Positions 11,620 to 29,463 are shown, numbered from the stretch's first letter. The stretch is DNA of 48,748 nucleotides from Nitrospirota bacterium (GCA_963699545.1 CAVOUE010000001.1:1-48748), one strand, 5' to 3'. Made by a program: numbers and translations. Notes: generated by a model from the sequence alone, not told the origin.

Positions 11620-11638
11620 ATTTTTATTTTAACATCTT

Positions 11639-11705: not shown

Positions 11706-11960
11706 ATGGTTGCAATGAAAGCAGATGTGATTTTGGACGTCAAGGGGCTAACCTGTCCCATGCCGGTGTTGAAAACGAAGAAGGCGATCGACGTGATGGA
11801 CTCGGGCCAGACCCTTGAGGTAATAGCCACGGACCCAGCGTCAAGAGCTGATATCCCGGCTTTTCTGGACAGATTAGGGCATGAGCTTGTCGAGGCAGAT
11901 GAAGAGGAGGGGATATTCTCTTTCTTAATAAAGAAGAACGGGGATGTCCCGAGAACTTAG
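11706..11960 (+). CDS. tusA: TusA-family sulfur carrier
   Basis: LDVKGLTCPMPVLKTKKA (CPxP motif) and ATDPAS..DIP; GGGAGG RBS. Confidence 0.92.
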   Translation: MVAMKADVILDVKGLTCPMPVLKTKKAIDVMDSGQTLEVIATDPASRADIPAFLDRLGHELVEADEEEGIFSFLIKKNGDVPRT

Positions 11961-11997
11961 GACAATACTTTTCAAGCATACCAACACGCGTTGACAG

Positions 11998-12615: not shown

Positions 12616-12619
12616 TATG

Positions 12620-12642
12620 CGTTATGCAGATATTCCATAACG
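12620..12642. promoter_or_regulatory. ModE-type operator palindrome
   Basis: CGTTATG-N9-CATAACG, 14 nt upstream of the modE start; resembles the ModE consensus CGnTAT...ATAnCG. Confidence 0.65.
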
Positions 12643-12656
12643 GATGAATTATAGAT

Positions 12657-12974
12657 ATGGAGATTAAATCAAAGCTTTGGATCGAAGTTGACGGTAAGCC
12701 CGTGTTCGGTAGGGGCAGAAGATTTCTGTTTGAGGCAATAGACAAATACGGCTCGATAAATCAGGCGGCGAAGGAGATAAATATCTCTTACAGAAAGGCC
12801 TGGGGATATATAAAGGCAATGGAGGAAAGGCTTGGGTTCAAGCTCATCGAACGACAGACAGGCGGCAGAAACGGCGGCGGCGCAAGCCTTACCGAAGGCG
12901 CAAGAGAATTTCTGAAAAAGTATGAGGCGCTGGAACATGGTATAAGAGAAATAGTTGATAACAAATTCAGATGA
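12657..12974 (+). CDS. modE: ModE-family winged-helix regulator (no TOBE domain)
   Basis: FGRGR..LFEAIDKYGSINQAAKEINISYRKAW..ERQTGGRNGGGASLT. Confidence 0.88.
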   Translation: MEIKSKLWIEVDGKPVFGRGRRFLFEAIDKYGSINQAAKEINISYRKAWGYIKAMEERLGFKLIERQTGGRNGGGASLTEGAREFLKKYEALEHGIREIVDNKFR

Positions 12975-13014
12975 TATATTCAAGGCGAATGATCTATAGA
13001 GGAGGTTTCTATGT

Positions 13015-14070
13015 GTGAGATCACCCCATGAAAACCCCGTCCCCGGAGTAAAGAAGTTAGCGGTGAAGGAGGCCGTCGGTACGGTCCTTGCCCATGACAT
13101 TACAGAGATACGGCCGGGAGAGTTCAAGGGACGCGCCTTCAAGAAAGGTCATATTATTCGTGAAGAAGATGTCTGTCATCTTCAGAGGCTTGGCAAGGAA
13201 CATCTCTTTGTGCTGAATATCGCAGAGGATGAGATGCACGAAGACGACGCGGCCTATGCCCTCGCGAATGCCCTCATGGGTGAGGGTGTCAGGATAAAGG
13301 GCGAGCCGAGGGAAGGGAAGATCAGCATCATCGCCGAGAAAGACGGACTCCTCAAAATAGATAAAGACGCACTTCTTGCATTCAACATGCTCGGCGAGGT
13401 CATGTGCGCAACGCTCCATAACAATACGTAGTGAAAAAGGGTCAGACAGTCGCAGGCACAAGGGCTATTCCGTTGATGGTAAGAAAGGACATTGTGCGGG
13501 TAGCGGTGCAGATCGGTGAACAGGGCAGGCAACGTTATTCAGGTGAGGGAAATTAGAAAGCCGAGGGCAGGCGTGGTCATCACCGGGAACGAAGTATATT
13601 ACGGCAGAATAAAGGACGCCTTTGCACCAATCATAACGAACAAGATAGAGGCAGTCGGCGGTGAAATCGTCGGCATCTACTATGCTCCTGATGACGAGTC
13701 ATTCATCGAGGCGAGGCTCAGAGAGCTGGTCAATGCCGGCGCTGACCTGCTCATCACAACAGGCGGCATGTCCGTTGACCCTGATGATGTCACGCGGTTC
13801 GCCATAAGAAATCTCGGAGCAACCGAAATCACATACGGCTCGGCAGTCCTTCCGGGAGCGATGTTTCTGGTGGCCTATCTCGGAGCAATCCCCATCCTGG
13901 GCATCCCGGCCTGCGGCATGTATGCAAAGACTACTATCTTTGACGTGATCCTTCCGAGGGTCCTTGCCAAGGAGAACATCGGGAGAAGAGAGCTGGCGGA
14001 ACTCGGGCATGGAGGACTTTGCTTAAAGTGCGAGACGTGCAATTATCCGGCCTGCCCGTTTGGGAAGTAA
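13015..14070 (+). CDS. MoeA-like molybdopterin-binding protein (frameshifted 13430-13515)
   Basis: AVGTVLAHDITEIRPGEFKG, ITGNEVYYGRIKD, TGGMSVDPDD, LPGAMF, GIPAC and GHGGLCLKC..C..CPFGK. Confidence 0.88.
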
Positions 14071-14181
14071 GAACTTAAATACTCTTAACAAAGAGCTAAC
14101 CGTCATGATCCGGTGGAAAAATGTGCGTCCCTTCTGCTACAATACCATAGTTTCTAAACATCTAATATGTGAGGTTTGAAT

Positions 14182-14361
14182 ATGGGTTTGATGAAAAGTG
14201 TTATGAATTTCTTTTCAACTGAAGAGGAGAAGCAGCCAGTGCAGGACCTGGGAAGGAATGCGACGTGCTGGTGCGGAAGCGGCAGAAAATACAAGAACTG
14301 CCATCTTCGCGAGGATGAAAAGAAGCTGAAGAACTACGCGGCAAACTGCGTAAATCGCTGA
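14182..14361 (+). CDS. Small SEC-C motif protein
   Basis: LGRNATCWCGSGRKYKNCH. Confidence 0.8.
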   Translation: MGLMKSVMNFFSTEEEKQPVQDLGRNATCWCGSGRKYKNCHLREDEKKLKNYAANCVNR

Positions 14362-14427
14362 AGCACCCGCTGAGCTGAGTTCAGCTCACAGGCGTTTCAT
14401 TGCAAAGGCCTTATAAAAAATTACCTC

Positions 14428-15556
14428 TCAGAAAGCCCTGTACCCGCTCCTTGATTGCAAGGTGGTCCGGGGAATGTTCGGCACATCCCTGTTCCCGGGA
14501 ATGGCCAGCACATGAATGAACCTCATACCGTCATGGGAATGTTTCAGGCTATTCACCAGGTCCTTTTTCCTGCTCACCTTATACGTATCCCGTATCCCGA
14601 ACCCCTTTGCCAGGGATTCCAGGTCCACACAGGAACCGGTGAGCGTAGGCTGGTCCCCCGTTGAACCGTAAGAGGCGTTGTCTATGCCGATAATCGTAAG
14701 GTTCTTCGGCGAGCGAGATGCAGCGGTAGCAAGGGTCCCCGGATTCATGAGGATGCTTCCGTCACCATCGATCACCACAACTTCCTTATCCGAGGTGAGC
14801 GCAATTCCAAGCCCTATGGGCGTCACCATGCCCATGCTCCCAGCATGTAAAAATTGGAGGGCTGGTCTTTTAAGAAATACAGCTCCTTTGACGGGATTCC
14901 CAGATTGCAGACCACCACCTTTGAATTAGATCCGGCGCAATAGTACTCAGTATCTCAAAACGGGTAAGTCTGGGAGAAGATACCCTCTGCACAATGCCCC
15001 GTTCATAATCAGCTCCTGCTTCCTTCTTATGACTCCTCACTTCCGGCTTCTCATTCCTCACCCCTGAATCCTCCCACAGGGCCGGACTGAGAAGGAATGC
15101 ATGGAGGGTATTCTTCCTGTATACAGCCTCAAGTCTCTGGCCGATGCCCTCAAGATCATCTCTTGTGGCAACAGGGGAATGGGGTATACCCGCGGCCTTC
15201 AGAACACCCGGGAGCCTCTTTCCCATGGGCAATTGTGCCTCGATCTCTTCTTTATAGATCCCCCTCCAGCTCACAAAAATGGCCAGGGGCAACTGGTAGA
15301 ACCCTGTGAGAGACAGAAGAGCATTGATCATGTTCCCGATACCTGAACTCTGGACAAACATGGCAGGCTTCTTCCCTGAAAGCGCAGCCCCTGCGCTGAT
15401 GCCCACACCCTCCTCCTCCCTTGTGAGCGGCAGATGAAAGAACTCTTCACCCACACGCCGGAGAAGACCTTTAATCTTTTCGCAGGGAAGGGACGAGGTG
15501 AAATCAACCTTCGCCTTCCTGAAGATTGCAATCAGTTCTTCTTCAGGGCCTCGCAT
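14428..15556 (-). CDS. comDE: Fused sulfopyruvate decarboxylase ComD-ComE (ThDP-dependent; frameshifts near 14925 and 14845)
   Basis: ComD motifs SLPCEKIK, LTREEEGVGISAGA, VQSSGIGNMINAL and EAQLPMG. The same frame runs into the ComE start (TRFEIL); shifted frames give VCNLGIPSKEL..NFYMLG-SMG and IDGDGSILMN..DN. Confidence 0.88.
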
Positions 15557-16788
15557 AATAATTCCTCAATCTCCCGCTCGGTAACCCTCTTTGAGACAAA
15601 ACAAGGCTCCACCTCATAGGTTTTCTTATGTCTTAATAACCTCTTTTCCCCACCGCCGGTGACATTCAATAGGACAGTATCCCTCCCTTGTACTGTCCCT
15701 GTGCTCACTGCCTCCATGAGGGTGGCAACCGCCACACCCGCCGCAGGCACGATATCTATGCCTTCGCTCTTTTCAAACGTATCCATTGCGCCAAAGACTG
15801 ATTCATTCCTGATGCCGTACATCCTCCCCCCTGTTGCCTTGAGCCCGTCGTAGACACCTCCCCTGATGGAGTATGCCGGGTAACGGGTGGAGAGCACTCT
15901 GGTGGTGATCTCGCCTATCAGCTCTGGCCTCAGGTCTTCGGGGAATAGGTTCCTGCTGTCCTTCTCCCATGCCTTGAGCATGGGGGCAAAGGGAAGGTTC
16001 TGTGCAAGGTGGAGGACCGGTAACCGGGATCCAAATCTTCCGTCCTTAAGGAACCTTTCCGCCATCTCCCACACCCCTATGGCGCCGGCACCGCTTCCCA
16101 CTGCCTGAAAATAGTGCTCAGGGAGCCGTCCCATGGCCAAGACCGCTTCCAGCAATACCACGCCGAGGCCGTCTCTCTTTGCGATATTTTTCACCCCGCC
16201 CTCAAAAGGGAACCCCATGGTAAGGGCAACCCTCTTTGCCACATCAATGGCGTCTGCATAATCACCGTCTCCTACCACCAGGGTCGGAATTTTCGGTGTA
16301 CGTTCGAGATACCACATTTCGGTGAGGCACATCCTCGGCACTACGATGATTGCAGGGAACCCTGTGAGCGCAGACAGGTGGGAAAATGCCCGTGCAGTAT
16401 TTCCGGCAGAGGCCACGGTCAATCCGTCCAGATTATTCTCCATGGCGTTCTGGAGCACCACCGCTGCCTCGAACTCCTTGAAGGTACAGGTATCGAGGGA
16501 CCCACCCCTTTCAGGCCAGTACCCGTTGAAGGCTATATAAAGGTTCTCAAGGCCGAGGCGCTCCGAAAGGCCCTCTGATCTGTATACCACAGGGCCTGAT
16601 TGATCAAAGTGCGGTGTGTGTACCGGGAGCCAGTTAAACCTCCATATGCCCTTTCCTGCATCGTCCCTGAAACCCTTTTCCTGGTACTCTGTGACGAGGA
16701 GCGCGTCCCTGCAGTGCTCGCAAAAGGCGCAGAAGGTCTCTTTCAGCTCTCTCCCGCACTCTGTGCATCTGAGGGTAAAATGGCTCAT
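15532..16788 (-). CDS. Cysteate synthase (PLP-dependent, threonine synthase-like)
   Basis: N-terminal CxxC..CxxC, YIAFNGYWPERG, TCTFKEFEA, ASAGNTARAF, EGGVKNIAKRDGLG, YFQAVGSG, QNLPFAPM, YPAYSIRGG and LLNVTGGG; adjacent to comDE as in Methanosarcina. Confidence 0.9.
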   Translation of the reverse strand: MSHFTLRCTECGRELKETFCAFCEHCRDALLVTEYQEKGFRDDAGKGIWRFNWLPVHTPHFDQSGPVVYRSEGLSERLGLENLYIAFNGYWPERGGSLDTCTFKEFEAAVVLQNAMENNLDGLTVASAGNTARAFSHLSALTGFPAIIVVPRMCLTEMWYLERTPKIPTLVVGDGDYADAIDVAKRVALTMGFPFEGGVKNIAKRDGLGVVLLEAVLAMGRLPEHYFQAVGSGAGAIGVWEMAERFLKDGRFGSRLPVLHLAQNLPFAPMLKAWEKDSRNLFPEDLRPELIGEITTRVLSTRYPAYSIRGGVYDGLKATGGRMYGIRNESVFGAMDTFEKSEGIDIVPAAGVAVATLMEAVSTGTVQGRDTVLLNVTGGGEKRLLRHKKTYEVEPCFVSKRVTEREIEELLCEALKKN

Positions 16789-17990
16789 GCAATGAGACCT
16801 GATATAAGCTCCATGATGTCTGTGATCTTCACCTGTTTCTCATACCCCTCCATGGCCTCATTTACCTTAGCATAGCATGCAGGACAGCTTAATATAAGCC
16901 TGTCCGCCTTTTTTTCCACGGCCTCGTCAATGGAGAGCCTTCCCATGGCTATGGAGTTCTCGTGGAAGACTTTCCTCGCTGCGCCCCCTGCACCGCAACA
17001 CCTCGAGTTCAGGCCGTGTCTCTCGAACTCCAGGAGCTCAACCCCGGGAATACTTCTCAGAACACTCCGGGGTTCTTCAATCACTCCCACCCCCCTGCTC
17101 AAATAACATGGGTCGTGGTATATGAGCCTCTCACAAAGCTCCTTCCTGATTATGAGGGTGCCCTTCTGCAACGAGTCAGAAACAAACTGGGTGATATGCC
17201 GTACTGCAAAGGGGAGCTCGCTCCCGTACAGGAGGGGCCAGTCCCGGGCCATGATATTGACGCAACAGGGACAGGAGCACAGGAGCAGCTTCACACCCTT
17301 TGCCCTGTATCCGTCCACCAGCCGCCTTGTCAGGTCCTTAAGCATTTCGTGCTGTCCGGTGATGAAGAGCGGAAACCCGCAGCACACCTCTTCCTCAGGC
17401 GGGAGCATGGCAAACGGCTCCCCGATGGCACCCAGGACGAGGACGTCTCCCCTCACCATGGGCTGCGCTTCATATGCGCCGGTACACCCCGCATAGTACG
17501 CGATGTCCGCCCTTTCGGCAATCCTCACCTTTTCAGGGAACCATGGAGCATATCTCTCCAGCGGGGGCTTCTCATAAGGGTTCCCTGTCTCTGCGATGGC
17601 CTTGGGGAGGTCTGCCTGCGAACCGATAGGTCCGAGCCCTCTCCTCACCATCTCCTTCCTCAATGCCGGCCAAAGCCTCTGAGTAAAGATGCCCACAGAG
17701 CAGCTCTCCCCGCATCCTCCGCATGTGGTGCATTCATAGATCGCCTTCACAAAATGCTCCGTGAGTTTCTCATCAACTTTTCCAGGTCCAAAGAGCCTTG
17801 CCTTCAGTCCATGGCTGGCCTTTATGAATTCCCTGAACATGCGGATTTTCTCAGGAGGAGATATGGTGGGGTTTCCGGTCACATCCTGGACCGGACAATG
17901 CTTCAAACATTCGCCGCACTGCGTGCATGCGTCCAGTTCCATGAACTGCATGGGGGTCAGCTGGTTTGTGAAAGGGTTTTCCTTCCTCAT
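16785..17990 (-). CDS. HdrD/GlpC-like (Fe-S)-binding protein with two CCG domains
   Basis: CTQCGECLKHCP, CTTCGGCGESC, EVCCGFP..SCPCC and YHDPCYL..RCCGAGG..SCPAC. ATGA overlap with cysteate synthase. Confidence 0.9.
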   Translation of the reverse strand: MRKENPFTNQLTPMQFMELDACTQCGECLKHCPVQDVTGNPTISPPEKIRMFREFIKASHGLKARLFGPGKVDEKLTEHFVKAIYECTTCGGCGESCSVGIFTQRLWPALRKEMVRRGLGPIGSQADLPKAIAETGNPYEKPPLERYAPWFPEKVRIAERADIAYYAGCTGAYEAQPMVRGDVLVLGAIGEPFAMLPPEEEVCCGFPLFITGQHEMLKDLTRRLVDGYRAKGVKLLLCSCPCCVNIMARDWPLLYGSELPFAVRHITQFVSDSLQKGTLIIRKELCERLIYHDPCYLSRGVGVIEEPRSVLRSIPGVELLEFERHGLNSRCCGAGGAARKVFHENSIAMGRLSIDEAVEKKADRLILSCPACYAKVNEAMEGYEKQVKITDIMELISGLIA

Positions 17991-18129
17991 TCCCTTTTGT
18001 ACCGGAGAAACAGGATTCCTCCCGTTCGGAGGTCAGTATTTTCCGGCTTCCACTATGTTAAAATAGCAAGTATACCCTTGTAAATGATATCAATATGAGA
18101 CTGGGCATAGGCACCCATCACGTGTAATC

Positions 18130-18963
18130 ATGATAGACATACCTGTGGTCAATTATCCGAAACCTTGGCTTCTGTTCTGGGTTGCAGATGCGTTGGCCGT
18201 GGGTTATTTTTATTACGCCCTGTACCGTAAATGGCAGGGCTGGTCCAGGGGAATAAAGCGGGTGCCGAAGGAAAAGATTCCATGGAGCCGGGTGTTTAGG
18301 ATCTGGCTCTCCGAGGTCCTGGGACAGCGGCAATTGTGGGGGCTTTCCCCTTTCCGCTGGGTTACCCACCTTTTCATCTTCTGGGGTTTCATCGCCCTTT
18401 CGCTGCTTTCCCTGTCCTCCTTTATCCTCAAACGCCTGGGCGATTTCGGCATAGACAGCGGCCTCGCACATTTTTTTTCCCGGGAAGAAGGATACCTTTG
18501 TATCAAGCTTTGGGGTGACGGCTTTGGAGTGCTCCTTCTCATGGGATTGCTGATTGCAGGAGTAAGACGATTTTTCATCCGCCCACCACAACAGAGCAAC
18601 AACCAGATGGACCTGTTCCTGATATTCTTCCTCTTCTGGCTCACCCTCTCGGGCTTCATCCTCGAAGGAATACGTCTTTCACTGATACCCCATGAAATAG
18701 CCCGCTATTCATTTTTTGGGCAACTGTTCATGCCAGGAGGCATCCCTTCCCCTAAAGAGGTGTATCCCTGGCTCACCGCCTGGTGGGTGCTGCACGCGTT
18801 CAGCTGGATTGCCTTCTTGGTATACTTGCCTCACAGCAAGCTGATGCATAGCATCCTTGCCCCTCTGGTCATCGCAATGAATGCAGTTGAGGAGCACGAA
18901 AGGGAGGACATCTATTGGCCCGACATCTCAAAACACAGGGCGACAAAATCGCCCAGGGACTGA
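18130..18963 (+). CDS. NarI/HdrE-like membrane cytochrome b anchor
   Basis: Multiple TM helices; RWVTHLFIFWGF, LTLSGFILEG and LHAFSW..YLPHSKLMH. Confidence 0.85.
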   Translation: MIDIPVVNYPKPWLLFWVADALAVGYFYYALYRKWQGWSRGIKRVPKEKIPWSRVFRIWLSEVLGQRQLWGLSPFRWVTHLFIFWGFIALSLLSLSSFILKRLGDFGIDSGLAHFFSREEGYLCIKLWGDGFGVLLLMGLLIAGVRRFFIRPPQQSNNQMDLFLIFFLFWLTLSGFILEGIRLSLIPHEIARYSFFGQLFMPGGIPSPKEVYPWLTAWWVLHAFSWIAFLVYLPHSKLMHSILAPLVIAMNAVEEHEREDIYWPDISKHRATKSPRD

Positions 18964-20177
18964 CCCGCAGACAACTCATTGAACTGGAGTCCTGCGCGCG
19001 GTGCGGTGACTGCCAGGTCTGGTGTCCTGTCTATGCCCAGGATCCCCGTGAATGCATCACTGCCCGGGGCAAGATGAGCGACCTGCGCCGTCTCGTGAAC
19101 AGTGGCCTGTCTGATCCTGAGAAACAGGACTTCCTCCAGTCCCTTTATGAATGTTCAGCCTGCGGTCAGTGCCACGTAGTCTGCCCGGTACGTATCAATA
19201 CCCCTGAACTCTGGGAACAGGCACGCCATTCCCTGGTCAGCGCAGGAATACCCCAGCCGGAAAGCCAGATGAAACAGCTCGCCACGATAAAGGAATTTAA
19301 CAATTCCTATGGCAAACCCCAGCAGGAGCGGGACGTGTGGGCCAGACTCGCATGGGAATCGGGCCTTCTCTTGAGGCCGCTCACGGTCTGGCAGGAGCGG
19401 ACCGCCCCTGTCCTCTATTTTGTGGGCTGTACCGCGAGCTTCGATCCCGAAACACAGTTCGTTGCGGTCCAGTCCGCACGTTTGTTGCAGGAGGCCGGGG
19501 TGGAATTCTCGATACTGGGAAAAGACGAGCCCTGCTGTGTGAGCAAGTTAAGGCGTATGGGAGACCTGGATTTCAGCGCTGAAGCGCAGAAACGCATGGT
19601 CCAGATTACCGCACTGGGAGCCGGGAAAGTGGTCGCTTCCTGCGCCGGTTGTTTTAAGGGACTGCACTCAGACTATCCAAAACTCCGGCCTGAATTCCGG
19701 CCTGTCCTGCATCTTACCCAATTCTTGGATGAACTCATCACAGAAGGCCGTCTGCGTTTAGCACATGAGGTGCCGATGGTAGTTACCTATCACGACCCGT
19801 GCCATCTGGGCCGCCACACTCAGGTGTACGATGAGCCGCGCCGTATTTTACAGTCTGTTCCTGGGCTGAAGCTGGTGGAGATGCCGCGCCACCGGGCCTT
19901 TTCCTCCTGCTGCGGCATGGGCGGAGGCCTGAAAATGGCCAATCCGGAGATCCAGCGTAAAATGGCTGCTGACCGGATTCGCGAGGCCGAATCCACAGGT
20001 GCTGAGGCAATTGTCACCCCGTGCCAGACCTGCTATCTCGGTCTGCTCCATGGCATTGAGGAGGCGGGCTCCTCAATGCGCGCCTATCACCTGAATGAGA
20101 TCCTTGCCCTTTCTGTCTGCCCTGAGGTCACCCGCGAAGAGGTAATAGGAACCTTTGCCAGGGCAGTCCCCCGGTAA
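18915..20177 (+). CDS. HdrD/GlpC-like (Fe-S)-binding protein
   Basis: CARCGDCQVWCP, CSACGQCHVVCP, EPCCVS..SCAGC and YHDPCHL..SCCGMGG..PCQTC. Confidence 0.9.
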   Translation: MARHLKTQGDKIAQGLTRRQLIELESCARCGDCQVWCPVYAQDPRECITARGKMSDLRRLVNSGLSDPEKQDFLQSLYECSACGQCHVVCPVRINTPELWEQARHSLVSAGIPQPESQMKQLATIKEFNNSYGKPQQERDVWARLAWESGLLLRPLTVWQERTAPVLYFVGCTASFDPETQFVAVQSARLLQEAGVEFSILGKDEPCCVSKLRRMGDLDFSAEAQKRMVQITALGAGKVVASCAGCFKGLHSDYPKLRPEFRPVLHLTQFLDELITEGRLRLAHEVPMVVTYHDPCHLGRHTQVYDEPRRILQSVPGLKLVEMPRHRAFSSCCGMGGGLKMANPEIQRKMAADRIREAESTGAEAIVTPCQTCYLGLLHGIEEAGSSMRAYHLNEILALSVCPEVTREEVIGTFARAVPR

Positions 20178-20191: not shown

Positions 20192-20887
20192 TTATCTCTT
20201 CTCACCATGCATCAGTCTCTTTAATTCCTCCTCCCTCAGTGTTGCATCCAGCATAACAAGGGGTGCAGCAACTATATGGGTGGGGACATAGAGGATAAGG
20301 ACAAGGACGAGGGAGAAATGCACAACAAAGAGGAAAGGGAGCGGCACTGACTGGGGGCTGAGGCCCAGGATCCCCAGCACAAAGCCCTTGACCGCCACAA
20401 GGTCTGCCTTAAAGACGGTTCTCAGAAGAATCCCGGTCACGCTCACAAGGAGAAGGAGGATGAGAAGAAAGAAGTTGTATGACGGAAAATACCCTTTTTC
20501 CCCGCTCAACTTGATTGAGAGGATATAGATGAGCGAGAGAGGGAGAAGATAGCCTGCAAATATCCCGAAAGGCTGCAGAAGAGCGACCCATCCCGGCACA
20601 GGATTCAGAAAAAAGACCAGATGTCTGAGCACGACCAGAAAAAAAGTACAGTGAAAGAGCCACTCACCAATCCAGAGCAGGTCATTTGTCCTGAGGAGAC
20701 GTGAGAGAAACAGTATATCGCCAGTAATGTTCAGAACCAGGCGAGGAGTTAAGGGAGGAGGAGGGGGAGCATACCCCCTAATAGTCTTTACTGCCTTCCA
20801 TAGTGTCAGAAGCCTGCCACACAACAAAACAAGAAAAATCCCCAGGACCGCATAGGTGCTCAGGGTCAAAAAAATTCCCATCCTCAC
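20192..20887 (-). CDS. DsrM/NarI-like membrane cytochrome b subunit
   Basis: DILFLSRLLR, WLFHCTFFLVVLRHL (two His 10 residues apart) and VVHFSLVLVLILYVPTH. Confidence 0.8.
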   Translation of the reverse strand: MRMGIFLTLSTYAVLGIFLVLLCGRLLTLWKAVKTIRGYAPPPPPLTPRLVLNITGDILFLSRLLRTNDLLWIGEWLFHCTFFLVVLRHLVFFLNPVPGWVALLQPFGIFAGYLLPLSLIYILSIKLSGEKGYFPSYNFFLLILLLLVSVTGILLRTVFKADLVAVKGFVLGILGLSPQSVPLPFLFVVHFSLVLVLILYVPTHIVAAPLVMLDATLREEELKRLMHGEKR

Positions 20888-20953
20888 CTTGTTATTCTCA
20901 GCTCTTTTTCTCTCTTATCATGTGACGCGGAAGCAGCAGTCGCCTCATATCTC

Positions 20954-21766
20954 CTAGAGGTCCCGCACATGGGTGAACATGCCGTTCATGCTCCTTGACT
21001 TTTCCCTCTCTGCCGCAAGAAACAGAAGGATCTCTTTCCTTATGGCGTTCAGTTCAGTGCTTGTCCTGTCCCGCGGCCGGGGGATATCGACCCTCAATAC
21101 CTTTCCTATCTCAGCAGGCCGCGAGGTGAAACAGATGATCTCGTCACCGAGGAATACCGCTTCTTCAACATTATGGGTGACGAAAATCACTGTCTTTCCC
21201 GTCTTCTCCCATAAATGGAGCAGGGCCACCTGCATATAGTTCCTTGTCTGGCAGTCAAGGGAAACAAAAGGTTCGTCCATGAGCAGGACTTTGGGTTCCA
21301 CCACCAGCGCCATGGCCAGAGCCACCTTCTGCTTCATTCCCCCTGATATCTCTTTCGGGTAGAAGTCCCTGAAGTCATGAAGCTCAACGAGCTCCAGGGC
21401 CGCAAGTGCCTTCTGCCTCCTCTGCTCATGGGGAACCCCTGCCACCTCAAGCCCGAACTCCACGTTCCGAATTACGGTCCTCCATGGAAGGAGCGCCGGC
21501 TCCTGGAAGATATACCCGATCTCCCTCACCGGTGATGTGATTTCCTTATTCCCGAGGAGAACCTTCCCTCTGTCAGGGCTCTCGAGACCCGCGATCATCC
21601 TCAGAAGCGTTGTCTTCCCGCACCCGCTTGGACCGATCACACACACAAATCTTCCTTCAGGGACTGTGAACGATACGTCCCTTATGGCGTCGATCCTTTC
21701 GCCTTCTGTGGGACTGCTGAATGATTTATGGAGGTCAATGACGTTCAGTTCCAAGGCTATCTCCAC
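20954..21766 (-). CDS. SsuB/TauB-like ABC ATP-binding protein
   Basis: GPSGCGKTT, ISGGMKQ, LLMDEPF and VTHN. Confidence 0.93.
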   Translation of the reverse strand: MEIALELNVIDLHKSFSSPTEGERIDAIRDVSFTVPEGRFVCVIGPSGCGKTTLLRMIAGLESPDRGKVLLGNKEITSPVREIGYIFQEPALLPWRTVIRNVEFGLEVAGVPHEQRRQKALAALELVELHDFRDFYPKEISGGMKQKVALAMALVVEPKVLLMDEPFVSLDCQTRNYMQVALLHLWEKTGKTVIFVTHNVEEAVFLGDEIICFTSRPAEIGKVLRVDIPRPRDRTSTELNAIRKEILLFLAAEREKSRSMNGMFTHVRDL

Positions 21767-22543
21767 CTCAGGATCTTATGTTCCATCTTCCTGATGCCAA
21801 AATCCATTGCGTATCCTATCATTCCTATGACAGCCATTCCCGCGATAATCTGGTCAGGCCGCTGGATGTCCCGTGCAGTCATGATCATATACCCGAGTCC
21901 GTACCCGCTCTTTACCCCCGTGAATTCCGCGGCCACAAGGGTCATCCATCCGATACCGAGGGCGATCCTCACTCCGGTAATAATGGAAGGCATGGCTCCG
22001 GGCAGGAGCACCTTGGCAAAGAGCGCTCCTTTCTTTGCGCCAAGAATTATGGACAATTCGATGAGTCTCCTGTTGATGGAGAGGACCCCTCCGATGGTAT
22101 TCAGCAGTATTGGGGAAAAAGGCCCCCAGAAAAATGATGAAGGACGAAGACCTGTCTCCGATGCCGAACCAGAGGATTGCAATAGGAACCCATGCCAGAG
22201 GAGGGATCGGCCTTATCATTTCGACAAAGGGGGTGAGGTAATTCCTTGCCCGTGTCCAGTATCCCATGGCAATGCCCAGAGGCAGGGCGGTGACAATGGC
22301 TATGGCTACGCCGCTCAAGACCCTCTTCAGGCTTGCTGCACAGTGCCCGGCGAGCGTGTAGCCCGGGGGAAGCCCCTGAGTGAGGAGATCCATGAAACCC
22401 AGGATTATATTCACAGGGGAAGGAAGTCTGTTACCGGGGATAACCCCGGAAAAGGACAGCACCTGCCAGATCACCACAACACACAAGATTGGAAGGTATC
22501 TCATAGACTTGCAGACCCGTTGAACAATCTTTTTCCCCCTCAA
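21757..22543 (-). CDS. SsuC/TauC-like ABC permease (frameshift near 22115)
   Basis: RPIPPLAWVPIAILWFG in ORF 21854..22543; LPGAMPSIITGVRIALGIGW..AAEF in ORF 21757..22182. Confidence 0.9.
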
Positions 22544-22576
22544 TCACATTTGAGACAGCTCAAGTCGCTTAAGACA

Positions 22577-23533
22577 TTAGTGGGCGACATCCTTAATCGT
22601 CCTGAGATCAAGGTATTCCCGCGCAAACTCATCCACATTGATTGACTTCACGTACCCGAACTTCAGAAGATATTTCACATACTCCTTAATGTCATCTTCC
22701 TTTGCGAAATAGTGGTACTGGATGTGGCTGATGGCCTCACGCACAGTGGCCTCATCCATTCCGGTATATTTTATGCCTATCCTGAGGGCATCTTCAGGAT
22801 TTTTCTTTATATACGCAGTTGCCTTCACATGGGCCTTCAGAAAGGATTTTACCACCTCAGGGTTCTCTTTATAAAAGCTCTCATCAACTACCACGACGCA
22901 GCAGGGATGGTCCTTCCATATCATGGGTGATGAAATGAGGACCCTCCCGATTCCCATGGTGACCGCCTTTGACGGATGGGGTTCCCATGCGATAAAGGCA
23001 TCGATCTGTTTTGCATTGAGCGCCACAATCATCTCCGGGGGCTTTATCACGATGATGTTCACCCTCTTTGGGTCTACGCCCGCTGCTTCCAGGGCCTTTC
23101 TCAGGAGAAAATCCTGGACACTTGAATATCCCGGAATGGCAACGGTCTTCCCCGCGAGGTCTTTTACCTCTCTTACCGCTGAATCCTTCCTCACCACCAC
23201 CGCAGACCCTTCCGCATTTGCCAGGGCCACTGCCCTGATGCGGGCTGACCTGTTTGCAAGCCCGGTGGCACTGGGCGCAACACCGAGATACCCCATGTCC
23301 AGACTCTTGGAAGCAAAGGCGGTCATCTCTTCAGGACCGGCGTTGAATATGCCGGCAATTTCAACATTGACCCCTTCTTCCCTGAAAAACCCCTTGTCCA
23401 TGGCGACCCAGGCAGCAAGGTGATGGAGGTCGTTCCTCAGATACCCGAGGCGGACTTCCCTGGGAGCGGCCATGGAAACGAGCGCGCTCAGAAGGACCAT
23501 GACAAATAATGCCACCACCACAATCTTTTTCAT
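22577..23533 (-). CDS. SsuA-like substrate-binding protein
   Basis: Sec signal peptide; VRLGYL..LHH, DLAGKTVAIP, AWEPHP and WKDHPCC. Confidence 0.92.
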   Translation of the reverse strand: MKKIVVVALFVMVLLSALVSMAAPREVRLGYLRNDLHHLAAWVAMDKGFFREEGVNVEIAGIFNAGPEEMTAFASKSLDMGYLGVAPSATGLANRSARIRAVALANAEGSAVVVRKDSAVREVKDLAGKTVAIPGYSSVQDFLLRKALEAAGVDPKRVNIIVIKPPEMIVALNAKQIDAFIAWEPHPSKAVTMGIGRVLISSPMIWKDHPCCVVVVDESFYKENPEVVKSFLKAHVKATAYIKKNPEDALRIGIKYTGMDEATVREAISHIQYHYFAKEDDIKEYVKYLLKFGYVKSINVDEFAREYLDLRTIKDVAH

Positions 23534-23596
23534 CCATACCTCCTCAAGGTCAATTCACGGGTTCTGCGGAGTATGCATTCTTGGGCAGAAGATGGG

Positions 23597-23929
23597 CTAT
23601 GTGTCCGAGCCCTTCTCCGTCTTCACAAATGTGATGCTCACGTCCCTGGGGATGTTCAGCCCTGCTTCCACTTCAAGGGCTTTGAGGATCCCCGAAGGCA
23701 CAGGGCAGGCGACGTGTCTCAGGCACGTCGCCCCCTTTTTGTATACCGGGTTGTCCTGAAACCTCTTGAACGCGTCCATCATGGTGAGCTCAGGGATCTC
23801 CTTCCCCAGCTTTTCCGCCATCTCGCATTCCGTCGTTATCCTCACTGAGAAGATCTTCCCTTCTTTCTTCTCAACCTCAACAGTGACCGGCATTCCGCAT
23901 GCCCCGGGGTTTATTATCACCTTTGTCAT
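23597..23929 (-). CDS. Small Cys-rich protein (DUF6951-like)
   Basis: PGACG, TECE and CLRHVACPVPSGILKALEVEAGL; family recognised from memory. Confidence 0.7.
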   Translation of the reverse strand: MTKVIINPGACGMPVTVEVEKKEGKIFSVRITTECEMAEKLGKEIPELTMMDAFKRFQDNPVYKKGATCLRHVACPVPSGILKALEVEAGLNIPRDVSITFVKTEKGSDT

Positions 23930-23948: not shown

Positions 23949-25940
23949 TCACCCCTTTATGCTCGATGCGATGGGCGCCTTCTGCTCTTCCAGCATCGCC
24001 TTGAGATTTGGGTATTTGTCCTTCATGTGAGGAATATGCATGGCCTGCATGAACTCCTTCTCAAAAGCCGGCTCTGTCGCGATCTCCACAAACTGCACCC
24101 ACCGCGCACGCTCGTCCGCCTCGCGACGTTTATCCTTATTGATGAGCGCCATTATTGCGCCATCTCCCGCAGCGTTTCCGACAACAATGACCTTATCGAT
24201 GGGCACATCGGGGAACATGCCGAGGGTCAGGGAGGCCTCCCTGTCTATATGGCTGCCGAATGCACCGGCAAGTTCGACCCTGTCGAGCTTTGTGACCCCC
24301 ATCTTCTGCATCATCAATTTCGCTCCGGTATAAAGAGCTCCCTTCGCGAGCTGGAGCGCGCGGACATCTCCCTGAGTCACGGTGATATCGGCATTAATAG
24401 ATGTTTCTTCGGCCCATGCGAGGACGTACTCAGGTTTTCCGTCAACACCCGATCTCACCCTGGTTGTCCCCAGATTCATCACGAATTTGCCACTCTTGTC
24501 TATGATGCCCGCTTTAAACATCTCGGCAATGACATCGATAATCCCTGAACCGCAGATACCCTTGGCGTTGATCTTGCCTTCGATGTGGGTATGCCAGTCT
24601 GCCTTTCCGATTACCTTATACTGTGGTTCCCTCGTCTCCGCATCGATCTTCACCTTTTCAATTGCGCCCGGTGCCGCCCTCATTCCGAATTTAATCTGGG
24701 CTCCTTCAAAGGCTGGCCCCGTCGCACAGGAAGTGGAGCAGACCCTGTCCTTGTTTCCGAGGAGCAGTTCACCGTTTGTCCCGATATCGATGACAAGCAC
24801 CATCTCATCCTGAAAATACTGTTCCTGGGCTATAAGAACTCCCACATTGTCTGCGCCGACGAAACCGGCTTCGATCGGCAGTACATGGATGTAACCGGCA
24901 GGATTGATCTTCAGACCGAGGTCACTCGCTTTTATATTCAGGGAACGCTGAACAGCGGGGATAAAGGGGGAACGGCCGATGTAGACCGGATTTAATCCGA
25001 GGAAGATGTGATGCATGGCCGTATTGAAAACGATGGTGAGATCATCGATTTCATATCCCGGGTGAGGACCGTCTTTCTTGATTTCATTCACGACCTTTTC
25101 GATGATCTCGTTCAGTCCGGAGATTATGGCGTTCTGCATCGTTTCAAGGCCGTCGGGATTCGATCATTGCATAGGTTATGCGGGACATGACGTCTTCGCC
25201 GTAGGGGACCTGGGGGTTCATCATGGATTCTGTGTTGATCACCTTTCCGGTGCTGAGGTCGCAGAGGTAGCCGACGCAGGTAGTGGTCCCGATGTCGACG
25301 GCAAGGCCGTAACATACGTCTACATGGCCGGGCTCCACCTTTATGATCTCCCTGTCCATCCATATGGTGAAGGTCGCTGTCCATTCCCCTCCCGCAGGGC
25401 ATCCTGGAGTGTCCTCAGTGCAAAGAAATCAAAGGTAAGGTCCCTGAGGCCGTAGTCTTCTTCAAGCGCCTTGACCACCCGCTCGTAGTCACCGGTGGTC
25501 ATGTCGTGGAGTTTCGGAGCGGTAAATGTAAGGGTATATTTCTTTACCGCAGGATCGAGGGCTATCGAAATCTCCCTTGCGACCTTGCGGACTACCTGTT
25601 TGCCTGCCCTCGAACGCTCCGGGACAAAGATCTTCAGGTCGCCCCGTATTTCGCATGAGCAGGCGAGCCTTATGCCCGGTCCGTCTTCGGGTTTTATATG
25701 TTTCAATTCGTCTTCTGAGGGAAGGGGAGGGAAGATATGGGACATACTCGACTCCAAATTGTCTTTTTCGGAGTAGCCCTCCTCAATTCTCACCTTGCAT
25801 TTTCCACAGACCTTCTTGTTGCCACAGAGCGCCTCAAGGTCCACACCGAGGGCCTGGGCAGCCTCGAGGATGGTTTTCCCTTCCTCGATCTCTCCCCGCC
25901 TGCCCGCAGGCTGAAAAATCACTTTGTGTGTATTAGCCAT
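23949..25940 (-). CDS. Corrinoid protein reductive activase (RamA/RACo, ASKHA/DUF4445) with N-terminal 2Fe-2S domain (2 frameshifts)
   Basis: CGNKKVCGKC..RLAC in ORF 25341..25979; AVDIGTTT and NPQVPYGEDVMSRI in ORF 25144..25359; GFVGAD, IDIGTNGE, CATGPAFEG, GICGSG, LAGAFG and GNAA in ORF 23949..25139. Confidence 0.92.
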
Positions 25941-26101
25941 GAATCCATCCTCCTTAATTTCTTGATGTACGTTTGGCAACTTGAATTCACCAGGGAGTAA
26001 ACAGAATCGAGAAGCGAACAGAGAATACTACACAGCCTTTTCTTATTCTCTTCTATGGATGTTCTCTTCAGTCCTCTATCACCCTGCTTACTGCATGCTG
26101 C

Positions 26102-26752
26102 CTACTTCACGTTGCCTCTCGTGCGTCCGTTTCTGGAAAAGGGACAGATCGTTACGCAGAGCCCGCAGTTGGGCTTTTCCTCAAAGAGGCGCCTCTCCTT
26201 CTTCAGGGTCCTGCACTTTTCATAATGTACGATCTTCCTGAGCGGCTCTCCCCGGGACCATGGCCTACCCGTAAAAGCCCCTGAGGGACAGTGTTTCACG
26301 CAGAGATCACATTCCCCGCACTGTGATTCGCTCACGGGAGTGTCAGGCACCAGGGGCGCATTGGTAAGGACAGTTGCCCATGAGAGCTTTGAACCGTACC
26401 GTTTATTGATGAGCAGCCCGTTCTTCCCGATCCACCCGAGTCCGGCGCATGTCGCGGTAGTCTTATGGCACACGAGGTGGTAAAGCTTGGCGATATACTT
26501 GTCATCTATCCTGTCAGAGTCGGGGGGGATGGACAAGCTTCTGAAGCCCTTTCCCTTAAGCCACCTCTCTGCCAGCTGCTGGAGTCTCTTAAGGAGCTCA
26601 ACAGTGTCCCTGTTCAGACCCCTGTTGACGGCAAGGGCGATCCCCCTGTTCAGGTGGACGATCTCTTGCGAGAGGGCTTCCGTGATATCACCCACACCCA
26701 CAAGGGTCGCGCCCTCCCTCTTTAACTGCTCTTTCAGTGATGAGGCATTCAA
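26102..26752 (-). CDS. Epoxyqueuosine reductase (QueG)/RDase-like Fe-S protein
   Basis: HKTTATCAGLGWIGKNGLLI..YGS, CGECDLCVKHCP and CGLCVTICP. Confidence 0.8.
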   Translation of the reverse strand: MNASSLKEQLKREGATLVGVGDITEALSQEIVHLNRGIALAVNRGLNRDTVELLKRLQQLAERWLKGKGFRSLSIPPDSDRIDDKYIAKLYHLVCHKTTATCAGLGWIGKNGLLINKRYGSKLSWATVLTNAPLVPDTPVSESQCGECDLCVKHCPSGAFTGRPWSRGEPLRKIVHYEKCRTLKKERRLFEEKPNCGLCVTICPFSRNGRTRGNVK

Positions 26753-26760: not shown

Positions 26761-27446
26761 TTACTTTTTCCCGGCCTTTTCGTCCCTCAATTTCTTGAGG
26801 AAGCTCACCATCTTGATCGCCTCCTTGAGGGCATTGCTCGCATCTTCGGCATACCCGTCAGCACCCCATTTGTCCGCGAGCTCCTTGGAGGTCGGAGCGC
26901 CTCCGATCATGATCATGCAGTTGGGGTTCTTCGCCTTTATCTTTTCGATGACCTTCGGCATGCCGACCATGGAGGTGGTCATCATTGCGGACAGACAGAC
27001 AAGCTCAGAATCTGTCCTCAGCTGCTCGTCGACGAACTTGTCCAGGGGAACGTCCCTGCCGAGGTCATACACCGTAAACCCGGCAACATCGAACATCATC
27101 TTCACGAGGTTCTTGCCGATGTCGTGAACATCTCCTTCGACTGTCCCGATAACGACGGAGCCCTTCACCCCCAGGTCCATCTGCTGGCAGTGGGGCTTGA
27201 GGATCTCGAGCCCGGCGTAGAGGGCATCGGCGCACATCAGGATCTCGGGGACGAAATATTCCTGCGCCTCGAAGAGGCGTCCGACCTCTTCCATCCCGGC
27301 CACGAGTCCGTCGAAAATCGCCTCATTGGCGTCGAGGCCCGCATCCAGAGCCTCCTGTGCGCCTTCTTTGCATGCGTCCTCGTCGTACTGAATTACGGAA
27401 TTTTTCAGTTTGTCAAGATCTCTTTCTTCTTCGCTTCGTCAGCCAT
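26761..27446 (-). CDS. Corrinoid (cobalamin-binding) methyl-carrier protein, MtaC/MttC-like (frameshift near 27410)
   Basis: GTVEGDVHDIGKNLV (DxHxxG), LSAMMTT, IGGA and GADGY. N-terminal cap domain MADEAKKKE..YDEDACKE starts in a TAATG overlap. Confidence 0.93.
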
Positions 27447-28471
27447 TATTTTTTACCTCCATATTTTTTTATTTCTTCCATCATCGCGATCATGTTCTGG
27501 GGCGGCACAGTCGGCCAAATGTCGCAGCCCGGCCAGACCGCGCTGACGCCGTCGTCGATGCACTTCCTCATCGTGGTGCTCACGAGATTCTCTTCGCCAG
27601 ATACGAGGACGTTGTACGGGTCGTAGTTGCCGAAGATGAGGGCATCCTTTCCCAGCTTCTTTCTCGATTCTGCAACGTCGTTCTTCTGTTCGACGCTGAT
27701 GGCCGTGGGCCCGGCCTCCATCATAAAGGTGACGATATCGTTCGTCTTTCCACATATATGGAGCACCGAATTGATCTTTATTTCACTGATCACTTTCTTA
27801 AGTGGCGGCATGATGAGGTTTTTGAAGACCCGCGGGCTCAGGACGTCGCTGGTGGCACCCATCTCCCTTACGGTTATATAGTCGGCGCCCGCCTTTTCAT
27901 ATTCTTTTGCGACGATGATAATGGCGTCCGCCATCACGTCAAGGAGTTTAGCCACCTTGTCGGCCTTCTTGAACGAGAGCTTCAGCAGGTCATTCAACTC
28001 CATTATCTGGCCGGCGAGGGTAAAGGGACCGAGGACATACGACCCTATTGCCACGTCGTTGCCGATATCGGCCTTCAGAAGCCTTATCGCCTCTCTCAGA
28101 AGGGGGACCCTGCCCCGGGAGGCGAGATCTGCGGGTAGTGAGATGTCCATCTCGTCCTCGTTGTGGATCAGCTTTTTCTTAATCGTCGGGTAGAGTATGC
28201 CTTCCGCATGGGGATACACATTGATCACGCATCCCATAGCCTCGGCCTCGACGCAGAGGTCAACGGGGACGACCCCGCATTCAAAGCCGAAGAGCTTGTA
28301 GGTAGAAGCCGCGGTTTCCGCCATCTGCTTTGCGTCAAGATGGATGCCGGCAAATCGGTAGCCGAGCTTGTTGATACCGGTTTCGGTGACGTTCCCCATG
28401 CCGCTGAAACAGGGGACCCTGTCGATCGCCTCCTTTTTGAACAACTTGATGACTCTCTCTCGTGAGTTCAT
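27446..28471 (-). CDS. MtaA/CmuA-family (UroD-fold) methylcobalamin:thiol methyltransferase 1
   Basis: DLCVEAEAMG, GPFTLA and Zn motif LHICG...PGCD. AAGGAG RBS before MNSRERV at 28471. Confidence 0.9.
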   Translation of the reverse strand: MNSRERVIKLFKKEAIDRVPCFSGMGNVTETGINKLGYRFAGIHLDAKQMAETAASTYKLFGFECGVVPVDLCVEAEAMGCVINVYPHAEGILYPTIKKKLIHNEDEMDISLPADLASRGRVPLLREAIRLLKADIGNDVAIGSYVLGPFTLAGQIMELNDLLKLSFKKADKVAKLLDVMADAIIIVAKEYEKAGADYITVREMGATSDVLSPRVFKNLIMPPLKKVISEIKINSVLHICGKTNDIVTFMMEAGPTAISVEQKNDVAESRKKLGKDALIFGNYDPYNVLVSGEENLVSTTMRKCIDDGVSAVWPGCDIWPTVPPQNMIAMMEEIKKYGGKK

Positions 28472-28502: not shown

Positions 28503-29463
28503 TTATTTTCCTTTTTTTCTTCCGATCCGCCTTCCTGGATTTTGGTGATGAAATCGCCGAAATACTTCCGTAGCGGCAGCTCCGGGTTGTCGAAGATGAC
28601 GCCGGTTTCGTCGAAGACGAGCGTCGAAAGAAGCATATGCGCACTCGCAACCGCGGGGAAGACCCTCGGGGCCGTGACGGCCGGACCGCAGAAGTTGAAG
28701 TCCGACCAGAGTGCGGACGACATGCCCTGGACCACCGCGTCCATGGCCTTGAAGCCGTCGAGTCCCCAGATCGCCTTTATCTCCTTCCACATATGTGTCC
28801 CGTTCGAATATGCCCCGCCGCAGGGAAACCCGTGCTTCTCCTTTATCATCCTGTTTGCGACGAGGGAAAACGAGGTCGACGGCAGGTTCATCACCGAGGT
28901 GTCGACGATAATGGTAGCGAAACCGTCCGCACCCTGCGCCAAGGATCGATTCAAGGGATTTCACCCTTCCGGCAGGGGACTGGTCCTGGTCGTCAAACGC
29001 CTGTATCACAACATGTCTTGATCCCGAGGTCTTTCAGCCGTTGAATCTGTCCTTTGATGTCCTTGTCCCACGGTGTTATGCTGTTGTATAGGAATTTGTT
29101 CTGTACCCCCAGCTTTGATACATATTCAGTGGCCTTCGCCCTCTGTTCTGCCACCCACATGTCGATGCCGAAGGGCATGTCCGTTGTCTCGAGGTAAAAG
29201 TCTATATATATCTTGGCCTCTTCCGGTGAATTAGCCACCATGGCCACCATACCGGGAACGCCGGTCACCTTGGAAAGTTCCTCCTGCTTGCGGATGATTT
29301 CCTTTGCCCTCTGACGGTCGAAATTACCCTTGCGGTCCTGCACGATCTGGTCCTTGTTGTGGAACATGGAGGAGATCATGAGGGGCGGATTCTCGCCCGG
29401 CTGGCCGCCTACCTTTATGCCGTTAAAGTCAAAAACCTTCTGTTCTTTCTTAAATGTGAACAT
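28503..29463 (-). CDS. MtrH-like (MtgA/CmuB-type) methylcorrinoid:pterin methyltransferase (frameshifted)
   Basis: MFTFKKEQKVFDFNGIKVGGQPGENPP, LYNSI, IIVDTSV, IKEKHGFPCGGAYSN and DFNFCGP..VFPAVA across ORFs 28993..29463, 28503..29009 and the 5' part of 27446..28954. Confidence 0.88.

Follow-up and report, generated by a model that had tools for sequence, protein, structure and literature searches.

An HdrD-like iron-sulfur protein inherited with cysteate synthase in Thermodesulfovibrionales: a candidate reductase for a coenzyme M-like thiol

Archaea that metabolise methane or alkanes, and a few bacteria that oxidise alkenes, are regarded as the users of the cofactor coenzyme M (CoM). What, then, could genes of a CoM-type pathway be doing next to a gene for an HdrD-like iron-sulfur protein in a member of the Nitrospirota? 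The question is raised by positions 14,428 to 17,990 of a 48,748-nucleotide stretch of DNA, here called the window (GCA_963699545.1 CAVOUE010000001.1:1-48748), where the HdrD-like gene, a cysteate synthase gene (CS) and the sulfopyruvate decarboxylase gene comDE form a module on the minus strand. The host genome is a Thermodesulfovibrionales (Nitrospirota) metagenome-assembled genome (MAG) of 3.04 Mb in 13 contigs, 87% complete. The initial annotation had suggested that the HdrD-like protein either acts in the last, sulfur-inserting step of CoM synthesis or keeps the product reduced. The second suggestion is the one that we find best supported, and the first is ranked lower.

Linkage of the HdrD-like gene to cysteate synthase

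The module was found as four head-to-tail open reading frames (ORFs) on the minus strand, at 16785-17990 (401 aa), 15532-16788 (418 aa), 14870-15556 (228 aa) and 14428-14835 (135 aa), the last two being parts of one gene. Its features, with the presumed membrane partner of the HdrD-like protein, are:

16785..17990, minus strand: HdrD-like Fe-S protein, 401 aa, with two [4Fe-4S] ferredoxin motifs, two complete CCG motifs and an extra cysteine, Cys242
15532..16788, minus strand: cysteate synthase, 418 aa, TIGR03844 469.8 bits, 74% identical to the copy on contig C3 of the same genome
14428..15556, minus strand: fused sulfopyruvate decarboxylase gene comDE, read in three frames in the assembly
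20192..20887, minus strand: DsrM/HdrE-like membrane cytochrome b, presumed partner of the HdrD-like protein, NF038037 (DsrM) 54.9 bits, below the cut-off

Positions 16785-16788 read TCAT on the plus strand and ATGA on the coding strand, therefore the TGA stop codon of the HdrD-like gene overlaps the ATG of CS. The CS ORF in turn overlaps comD by 25 nt (15532-15556), and the identical 25-nt overlap is present at the paralogous locus of the same genome (L020 10619-10643). Both overlaps had been described in the initial annotation and were confirmed from the ORFs and the sequence. The CS protein passes the equivalog cut-off of its family (324.9 bits) over residues 4-395.

The presence of both genes was scored in 201 genomes spread evenly over the order Thermodesulfovibrionales, with a threshold of E <= 1e-100 for the HdrD-like protein. 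CS was matched in 68 genomes (67 above the cut-off) and the HdrD-like protein in 69; the two occur together in 67 genomes and are both missing from 131. The single genome with CS but not the HdrD-like gene is G018 (83% complete), and the two with the reverse pattern are G001 (86% complete) and G004 (77% complete). A manual count based on the coordinates puts the genes next to each other in 59 of the 67 genomes, and three of the other eight may be contig-end artefacts. Related genomes are not independent and these counts are given with no statistical test; the linkage is far beyond chance.

Outside the family of the window genome, the tallies by family are the same for CS and the HdrD-like gene: 18 of 22 genomes in f2, 3 of 11 in f3, 9 of 12 in f5, 1 of 22 in f6, 3 of 3 in f7, 13 of 21 in f8, 2 of 6 in f9 and 3 of 20 in f11. 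For the family of the window genome itself they are 15 of 18 (CS) and 16 of 18 (HdrD-like). The pair has therefore been gained or lost jointly many times, a pattern that speaks for a so far undescribed role of a CoM-like thiol in bacteria. The distribution of an MtaA-like methyltransferase gene is nearly that of the pair: in a 41-genome sample its orthologue was found in 24 genomes, with all three genes in 21, none in 14 and a mixed pattern in 6.

The HdrD-like, CS and comDE genes are the tail of a much larger conserved operon, which was delimited by clustering our own ORF calls on 80 loci and naming the clusters with NCBIfam and Pfam. The dominant order is MtrH-like, MtaA/CmuA-like, MtbC/MtgC-like corrinoid protein, 4Fe-4S protein with RACo/AcsV-like activase, DUF6951, sometimes FolD, then DsrM-like, HdrD-like, CS and ComDE. 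In 50 of the 56 CS-linked loci the gene immediately before the HdrD-like gene encodes a membrane DsrM/NarI-like cytochrome b, and ComDE follows in 53 of the 56, with two more running off the contig. Where at least 6.5 kb of upstream sequence was available (35 loci), the activase was found in 33, the MtaA-like gene in 30, the MtrH-like gene in 24, DUF6951 in 21 and FolD in 11; the DUF6951 figure is an undercount because our ORF calling was crude. The 80 closest loci come from GTDB genomes named Nitrospirota or Nitrospirae, Thermodesulfovibrionales, Ca. Sulfobium, Dissulfurispiraceae and Thermodesulfovibrio, with three titled only bacterium or Nitrospira sp. The linkage is thus conserved across the Thermodesulfovibrionales, and the possibility raised in the initial annotation that it is unique to the window genome can be set aside.

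The window carries the full operon set and, in addition, genes for an Ssu-type importer and a divergent pair of genes that has been inserted:

18130-18963, plus strand: NarI/QmoC-like membrane protein, member of the inserted divergent pair (18130..20177)
18915-20177, plus strand: HdrD2, a distant HdrD paralogue, about 30% identical to the HdrD-like protein, with CAGC in the first CCG domain
20948..23536, minus strand: Ssu/Tau-type sulfonate ABC importer (ATPase 20948-21766, permease 21760-22570, binding protein 22577-23533)
23597..23929, minus strand: DUF6951 protein, 110 aa, PF22263 104 bits, conserved operon member
23952-26000, minus strand (within the feature 23949..26752): corrinoid reductive activase, RACo/AcsV-like, in one frame with an internal stop
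26102-26752, minus strand: 4Fe-4S protein preceding the activase
26761..27417, minus strand: corrinoid (B12-binding) protein of MtbC/MtgC type, 90% identical to the L050 orthologue, whose family was assigned
27449..28471, minus strand: MtaA/CmuA-family methylcobamide:thiol methyltransferase, 342 aa, intact, 85% identical to the L050 orthologue
28514..29463, minus strand: MtrH-family methyl-corrinoid:pterin methyltransferase, in three frames (two frameshifts)

The importer sits between the DUF6951 and DsrM-like genes. The divergent NarI-like/HdrD2 pair cuts the DsrM-like gene off from the HdrD-like gene, as it also does in L079; the insertion is present in the short locus L073, and the pair adjoins the module in seven other loci. 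Two Hdr-like complexes therefore adjoin one CS gene. In a quick tree, HdrD2 falls in a separate clade on a long branch.

The assignments of the methyl-transfer genes were made through the orthologues at L050. The MtaA-like orthologue scores 251.8 bits with NF004889 (cut-off 244) and 161 bits against the Methanosarcina mazei MtaA structure 4AY7, with which its H-x-C motif and a later cysteine are aligned; these are the residues that we take to be the zinc ligands of MtaA. The MtrH-like orthologue scores 338.8 bits with NF002142 (cut-off 287). The window activase gave a single tblastn segment of 692 residues, 76% identical to the intact protein of another genome of the order, G012.

The initial annotation had also remarked that no aminotransferase or ComF gene is adjacent, which agrees with our searches. 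None of the 39 ORFs scanned between 1003 and 36742 matched an aminotransferase family. Across the host genome the best match to TIGR03287 (MMP16/ComF) reached 27 bits against a cut-off of 364, and PF01837/COG1900 gave no match.

The HdrD-like protein and its proposed reaction

The HdrD-like protein combines a 4Fe-4S dicluster domain (Pfam Fer4_8 and Fer4_17) with two CCG domains (PF02754 in two stretches, 78 bits), and no TIGR03287 or PF01837 domain was found in it by the domain search. Across 15 aligned family members, the ferredoxin cysteines C22/25/28/32 and C87/90/93/97 are invariant, and the cysteines C169/203/204/240/243 and C295/331/332/369/372 of the two CCG motifs (which we take to be defined as C...CC...CxxC) are invariant or nearly so.

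Its best curated match is TfrB, with 176.1 bits against the NF004898 cut-off of 385, covering residues 15-397 and profile positions 129-485. It is followed by LdhH (118.4 bits, cut-off 800), GlpC (87.5, cut-off 278), DsrK (NF045796, 81.9, cut-off 400) and GlcF (23.3, cut-off 333). By these scores the protein does not group with the iron-sulfur subunits of lactate or glycolate dehydrogenases, a possibility considered in the initial annotation. Relatives in the PDB are 9ojn, a 1042-aa 'iron-sulfur-binding reductase' (95 bits), and HdrB (about 20 bits).

The homologue search by sequence words listed 120 matches, all 75-100% identical. Among representatives at 50% identity there is one cluster at 73%, then clusters at 46, 43 and 39%, and then a broad background at 30-35%, which includes Asgard archaeal and Desulfobaccales proteins and the HdrD of Ca. 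Argoarchaeum and Ca. Ethanoperedens. The latter HdrD, about 34% identical, is among the nearest named relatives and differs in the CXXC that closes the first CCG domain (CAGC, where the HdrD-like protein has CPCC). This C-P-C-C is shared with the three nearest outside clusters, and canonical HdrD has C-A-G-C or a similar motif.

The third residue of the C-P-C-C motif, Cys242, is encoded as cysteine in 72 of 77 family genes and is an in-frame TGA in the other five, giving S-C-P-U-C-V. The five are paralogues at L082, L086, L118 and L119 (TGA at 7724-7726 in each) and L116 (275-277), and none of them is CS-linked; HdrD-like paralogues on G019:C21, G004:C55 and G143:C5 are three further TGA copies. 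A 6-bp stem-loop begins 16 nt past the TGA, and SelB is present in the host genome. On these sequence features the TGA-bearing paralogues are probable selenoproteins. An exchange between cysteine and selenocysteine is typical of a catalytic redox residue, so that the swap at position 242 argues for direct sulfur chemistry there, over pure electron transfer. It also offers a precise residue for mutation.

Three known systems resemble the HdrD-like protein and its partner. With HdrDE the window shares two [4Fe-4S] and two complete CCG motifs in the same domain order and an adjacent b-type cytochrome gene, but HdrDE has C-A-G-C in the first CCG domain where the window protein has C-P-C-C (C-P-U-C in some paralogues), and no Mcr was found in the host genome. 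HdrDE uses methanophenazine, whereas the quinone in the window organism would be menaquinone. DsrMK(JOP), a quinol-linked reductase of the DsrC trisulfide, has the same core of membrane cytochrome b and cytoplasmic CCG protein and belongs to the sulfate-reducer lineage. However, the window proteins score 81.9 against 400 bits (DsrK) and 54.9 against 300 bits (DsrM), and their genes are tied to CS-comDE instead of dsrJOP and dsrC. TfrB, of the thiol:fumarate reductase with CoM-SH and CoB-SH as donors, leaves its N-terminal 128 profile positions unmatched, and no TfrA-like flavoprotein gene lies near the window HdrD-like gene.

The upstream part of the operon is comparable with the MtaABC/MtsA systems of methanogens and with MtgABC/Mto-type systems, with which it shares the MtaA-like, MtbC/MtgC-like and MtrH-family proteins and the RACo/AcsV-like activase. 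We know of no corrinoid methyltransferase system with CS, ComDE and an HdrDE-like pair in one operon, and our literature search brought up none.

From these gene identities, the cofactor motifs, the conservation of the operon and the co-inheritance, we infer that the HdrD-like protein and the cytochrome b could be an HdrDE/DsrMK-type, menaquinol-linked reductase of the disulfide or persulfide of a CoM-like thiol; this is the reading that we favour, tentatively, as falling somewhat short of probable. The HdrD-like protein would be the cytoplasmic catalytic subunit of a two-subunit membrane complex with the DsrM-like cytochrome b, and the complex would connect the menaquinone pool with a low-molecular-weight sulfonate thiol, exchanging electrons with the sulfur atom of the latter. 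The thiol, CoM or a close analogue, would be built from phosphoserine and sulfite by CS, a housekeeping aminotransferase and ComDE. Most likely, the complex would reductively cleave a disulfide, mixed disulfide or persulfide of this thiol; the site would be the non-cubane cluster in the first CCG domain, and the attack would come from Cys242 (or, in some paralogues, selenocysteine). Cleavage could thus keep the thiol available to the upstream MtaA-like/corrinoid/MtrH-like methyl-transfer system. Four parts of this scheme are predictions: that the product is a thiol, which substrate the complex acts on, which way the electrons flow and that menaquinone is the partner.

We favour the reductase because the cofactor set is invariant, a membrane partner is encoded nearby, a Cys/Sec residue is present and the gene is co-inherited with CS. 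The island is also coherent, joining CS and ComDE to an Ssu-type importer and to an MtaA-like enzyme with the H-x-C motif and the later cysteine. Furthermore, paralogues of the HdrD-like gene are found in sulfur-related contexts, and in G011 and G014, where CS-comDE is on another contig, it is the methyltransferase genes that the HdrD-like gene accompanies.

Several points weigh against this proposal. Every curated family score of the HdrD-like protein is below its cut-off, and no McrA was found in the host genome, at 87% completeness. The thiol product, and the enzyme that would convert sulfoacetaldehyde to it, are only putative in these genomes, and a thiol whose task is to carry methyl groups has no obvious reason to form disulfides at a rate needing a membrane complex. 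A further point comes from G012, the only one of the 201 genomes with MMP16 (TIGR03287 401.7 bits, cut-off 364). It retains the methyltransferase genes, the importer and DUF6951, and is without the DsrM-like, HdrD-like, CS and ComD genes. The Hdr-like pair therefore tracks the genes that would make the thiol and not those that would use it, and this pattern fits a biosynthetic role for the pair at least as well.

Biosynthetic and general electron-transfer roles

In the biosynthetic alternative, sulfoacetaldehyde would be reductively thiolated by the DsrM-like/HdrD-like complex itself or in a step that the complex drives; the complex would then be a quinol-dependent CoM synthase unrelated to MMP16. 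This is the 'last step' of the initial annotation, and we consider it possible, though on balance unlikely. In a possible route, a persulfide on Cys242 would attack the aldehyde, and the thiol would then be released reductively from a mixed disulfide at the non-cubane cluster; the cysteine or selenocysteine at this position could carry such a persulfide.

A known system for comparison is the cs-comDE-MMP16 cluster of Methanosarcina acetivorans (MA3297-MA3299), in the phosphoserine-dependent CoM pathway. The window shares with it a true CS gene with a fused comDE behind it, as well as an Ssu-type ABC system connected with CoM supply. The archaeal cluster has MMP16/COG1900, whereas the window has an HdrD-like CCG protein and a membrane cytochrome b, in a bacterial host in which no Mcr was found. 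An earlier proposal (PMC4045070) assigned the CoM thiolation step to DUF39/COG1900. PMC11844431 describes MMP16 (MA3299) as the main CoM synthase of M. acetivorans, other routes serving as backup if sulfide is available, and names the Ssu ABC system as the CoM transporter. The view in the initial annotation that thiolation is the least understood step of the route is therefore partly outdated for methanogens, and it still holds for the CS-positive bacteria, since MMP16 was found in none of the 67 CS-positive genomes.

This distribution favours thiolation by the complex, as does that of PF01837, which was matched in 1 of 41 genomes, that one being CS-negative. The nearly perfect co-inheritance and adjacency with CS, the ATGA overlap in the window and the gene content of G012, where the HdrD-like gene is missing together with the CS and ComD genes, point in the same direction. 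The MMP16 gene of G012 also adjoins a gene for a 479-aa CCG/LdhH-like Fe-S protein, so that MMP16, too, stands beside a CCG-domain protein. The locus (L208, G012:C95, 3949-11578) comprises MMP16, a molybdopterin oxidoreductase, a PRK04334-like protein, a second, partial HcyBio protein and a Tct transporter.

Against thiolation, formation of a C-S bond is a reaction for which we know of no CCG-domain enzyme. A dedicated biosynthetic role is also difficult to reconcile with near-identical HdrD-like paralogues in operons without CS. In a quick IQ-TREE analysis, whose weakly supported forks carry little weight, CS-linked and CS-free copies are interleaved and the CS-linked label needs eight changes; at least five DsrM-HdrD pairs have no CS nearby. 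Copies that are 70-75% identical lie in an operon (L059/L202/L204) with genes for TusC-like, TusB-like, SQR/CoA-disulfide-reductase-like and ArsR/BigR-like proteins, an RND transporter, a membrane protein, the HdrD-like protein and a LolA-like protein, together with a DVU_1556-type methyltransferase and a 430-aa protein of no known function. This operon looks like a persulfide or sulfide-stress module, and such contexts fit a general module connecting thiols or persulfides with quinone. In G013, a 100% complete genome, the sole HdrD-like copy is in the Tus/SQR-like operon and CS-comDE stands alone. The separation of the HdrD-like gene from CS-comDE in G011 and G014 counts against thiolation too.

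The nearest lineage outside the group (P0125, 43% identical, with C-P-C-C) is an archaeal HdrD/NarI-like pair on metagenome contigs. At L133 7989-10328 its neighbours are the housekeeping genes for TiaS, PCNA, primase and RNA polymerase, and no CS was found within 8 kb of the pair; the CS linkage therefore does not extend to this lineage. In addition, the M. acetivorans MMP16 mutant grows if sulfide is supplied, as stated in PMC11844431, so that a dedicated enzyme may be dispensable in a sulfidic cell.

The most far-reaching combination would be that sulfate reducers of the Nitrospirota make CoM or a close mercapto-sulfonate by way of CS and ComDE and finish it with a quinol-driven, HdrDE-like complex in place of MMP16, a second and unrelated means of thiolating sulfoacetaldehyde reductively, the thiol serving both in methyl transfer and as a general redox thiol with no methanogenesis. 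We regard this as rather unlikely. Xanthobacter autotrophicus Py2 reportedly has a bacterial CoM pathway (PMC9457059) and is able to make CoM. That route differs from the window island, which uses the archaeal CS/ComDE route, and it is distinguished from the archaeal routes in PMC11844431. Our literature search found no description of CS or ComDE with Hdr-like genes in Nitrospirota or Thermodesulfovibrio, and the matching papers, as far as their retrievable text goes, treat CoM genes only as markers of methanogenesis or taurine.

The HdrD-like pair could instead be a general electron-transfer module of the GlpC, LutA or SdhE type, linking a dehydrogenase of methyl oxidation to the quinone pool and leaving the sulfonate untouched. 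CCG proteins are quinone-linked subunits of several dehydrogenases, the HdrD-like protein has weak matches to LdhH, GlpC and GlcF, the pair occurs in several unrelated contexts, and FolD is present in 11 of the 35 operons mentioned above. We nevertheless find this improbable, because those matches are far below their cut-offs and no MetF, flavoprotein or LUD-domain gene is conserved beside the HdrD-like gene among the clustered loci, which leaves the proposed module with no conserved dehydrogenase partner. Moreover, G012 has the methyltransferase module and not the pair, the co-inheritance is with CS, and the Cys/Sec position speaks for sulfur chemistry.

Frameshifts in the window island and the nature of the product

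A different kind of explanation is that the window copy is a decaying paralogue and that a second island of the same genome does the work. This second island is on contig C3 (L020, G000 contig C3:853000-872900, at about 8500-19000) and contains genes for a QmoC/NarI-like protein, an HdrD-like protein (split), CS, ComDE and SsuABC (ATPase split). An AcsV-like activase and a PrdB-like fragment are encoded near it, and its MtaA-like gene is at C3:873550-874554.

Translation of the window in three frames, and a tblastn search with the intact ComDE from the second island, showed that comD and comE are one fused comDE gene lying in three frames. ComDE residues 1-210 are at 15556-14927 (frame -1), residues 211-250 at 14927-14808 (frame -3) and residues 220-376 at 14901-14431 (frame -2), which corresponds to the loss of one nucleotide near 14926 and of another near 14838, and perhaps also at 14466. 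The overlap of comD with CS given in the initial annotation holds, but comD is not a separate gene; neither the frameshifts nor the larger operon had been noticed there.

The ComD part, in the third ORF, scores 174.5 bits with TIGR03845 (cut-off 147.95). The ComE piece, in the fourth, reaches 150.4 bits with TIGR03846 against a cut-off of 221.5 and covers profile positions 44-171 only; the truncation of the piece explains why it misses the cut-off. The intact C3 ComDE (380 aa) scores 178.6 bits (alpha) and 221.9 bits (beta), and its phosphonopyruvate decarboxylase score is 199.9 bits against a cut-off of 312.5.

The frameshifts of comDE (two or three), the two in mtrH, the one in ssuC near 22130 and the in-frame stop in the activase would, together with the presence of two islands, fit real decay. 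However, the C3 island is broken as well, in its HdrD-like and ABC ATPase genes, and unrelated window genes are each split into two ORFs: a molybdopterin oxidoreductase (7370-9130), a sigma-54 activator (10115-11384) and a second URO-D/MtaA-like gene (30152-31273). With splits in unrelated genes and in both islands, the frameshifts are read as assembly indel errors. For comDE this is probably the case, judging from relatives about 90% identical (contigs, three public runs), in which a single base is added after each of 14926 and 14838, precisely where the two breaks lie, and another after 14466. In the window, CS and the HdrD-like and MtaA-like genes are unbroken, with 72-85% identity to their orthologues. 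Decay of the window copy is therefore quite improbable in our view. The window organism itself was not found in the public sequencing runs searched (best share of sampled words 0.09), and no RNA run contained the stretch.

An irregularity in CS itself was seen in G001, a genome of the same genus, where CS is a remnant of about 90 aa (L054 8211-8479, G001:C61; residues 1-34 joined to 363-418) between intact HdrD-like and ComDE genes. We considered it as a sign of the HdrD-like gene outliving CS and rejected this, since it comes from one 86%-complete MAG in which ComDE is intact too and mis-assembly is possible.

The initial annotation also named isethionate and taurine as alternative products. 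That the module ends with sulfoacetaldehyde or with a derivative other than a thiol (isethionate, taurine or a sulfolipid head group), and that the Hdr-like pair has nothing to do with this product, is very improbable. In its favour, CS and ComDE are the sole recognisable pathway enzymes, and cysteate has been raised as a taurine route in anoxic subsurface microbes (PMC12019592). Against it, the conserved neighbours include homologues of a thiol methyltransferase and of a disulfide reductase, but no gene for a sulfoacetaldehyde reductase, a taurine aminotransferase or an acyltransferase.

About one third of the sampled Thermodesulfovibrionales (67 of 201) carry a co-inherited island in which the archaeal precursor genes stand together with a thiol methyltransferase system and a membrane complex of Hdr-like type. 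If the product is a CoM-like thiol, CoM-type chemistry would reach common sulfate reducers of anoxic soil, wetland and groundwater, and the complex would be a candidate for a CoM disulfide reductase or for a second kind of CoM synthase. Metagenome matches to comE, cysteate synthase and mtaA would then no longer be markers of methanogens.

Some minor features of the window were also observed. Three OsmC-like (peroxiredoxin-type) genes are dispersed around the island at 5905-6444, 9293-9808 and 31794-32342, and a CobW-type GTPase and a rhodanese-domain protein are encoded at 32915-33799 and 33929-35137, respectively. Between 36001 and 40000 the G+C content is 0.59-0.64, compared with about 0.52 elsewhere.

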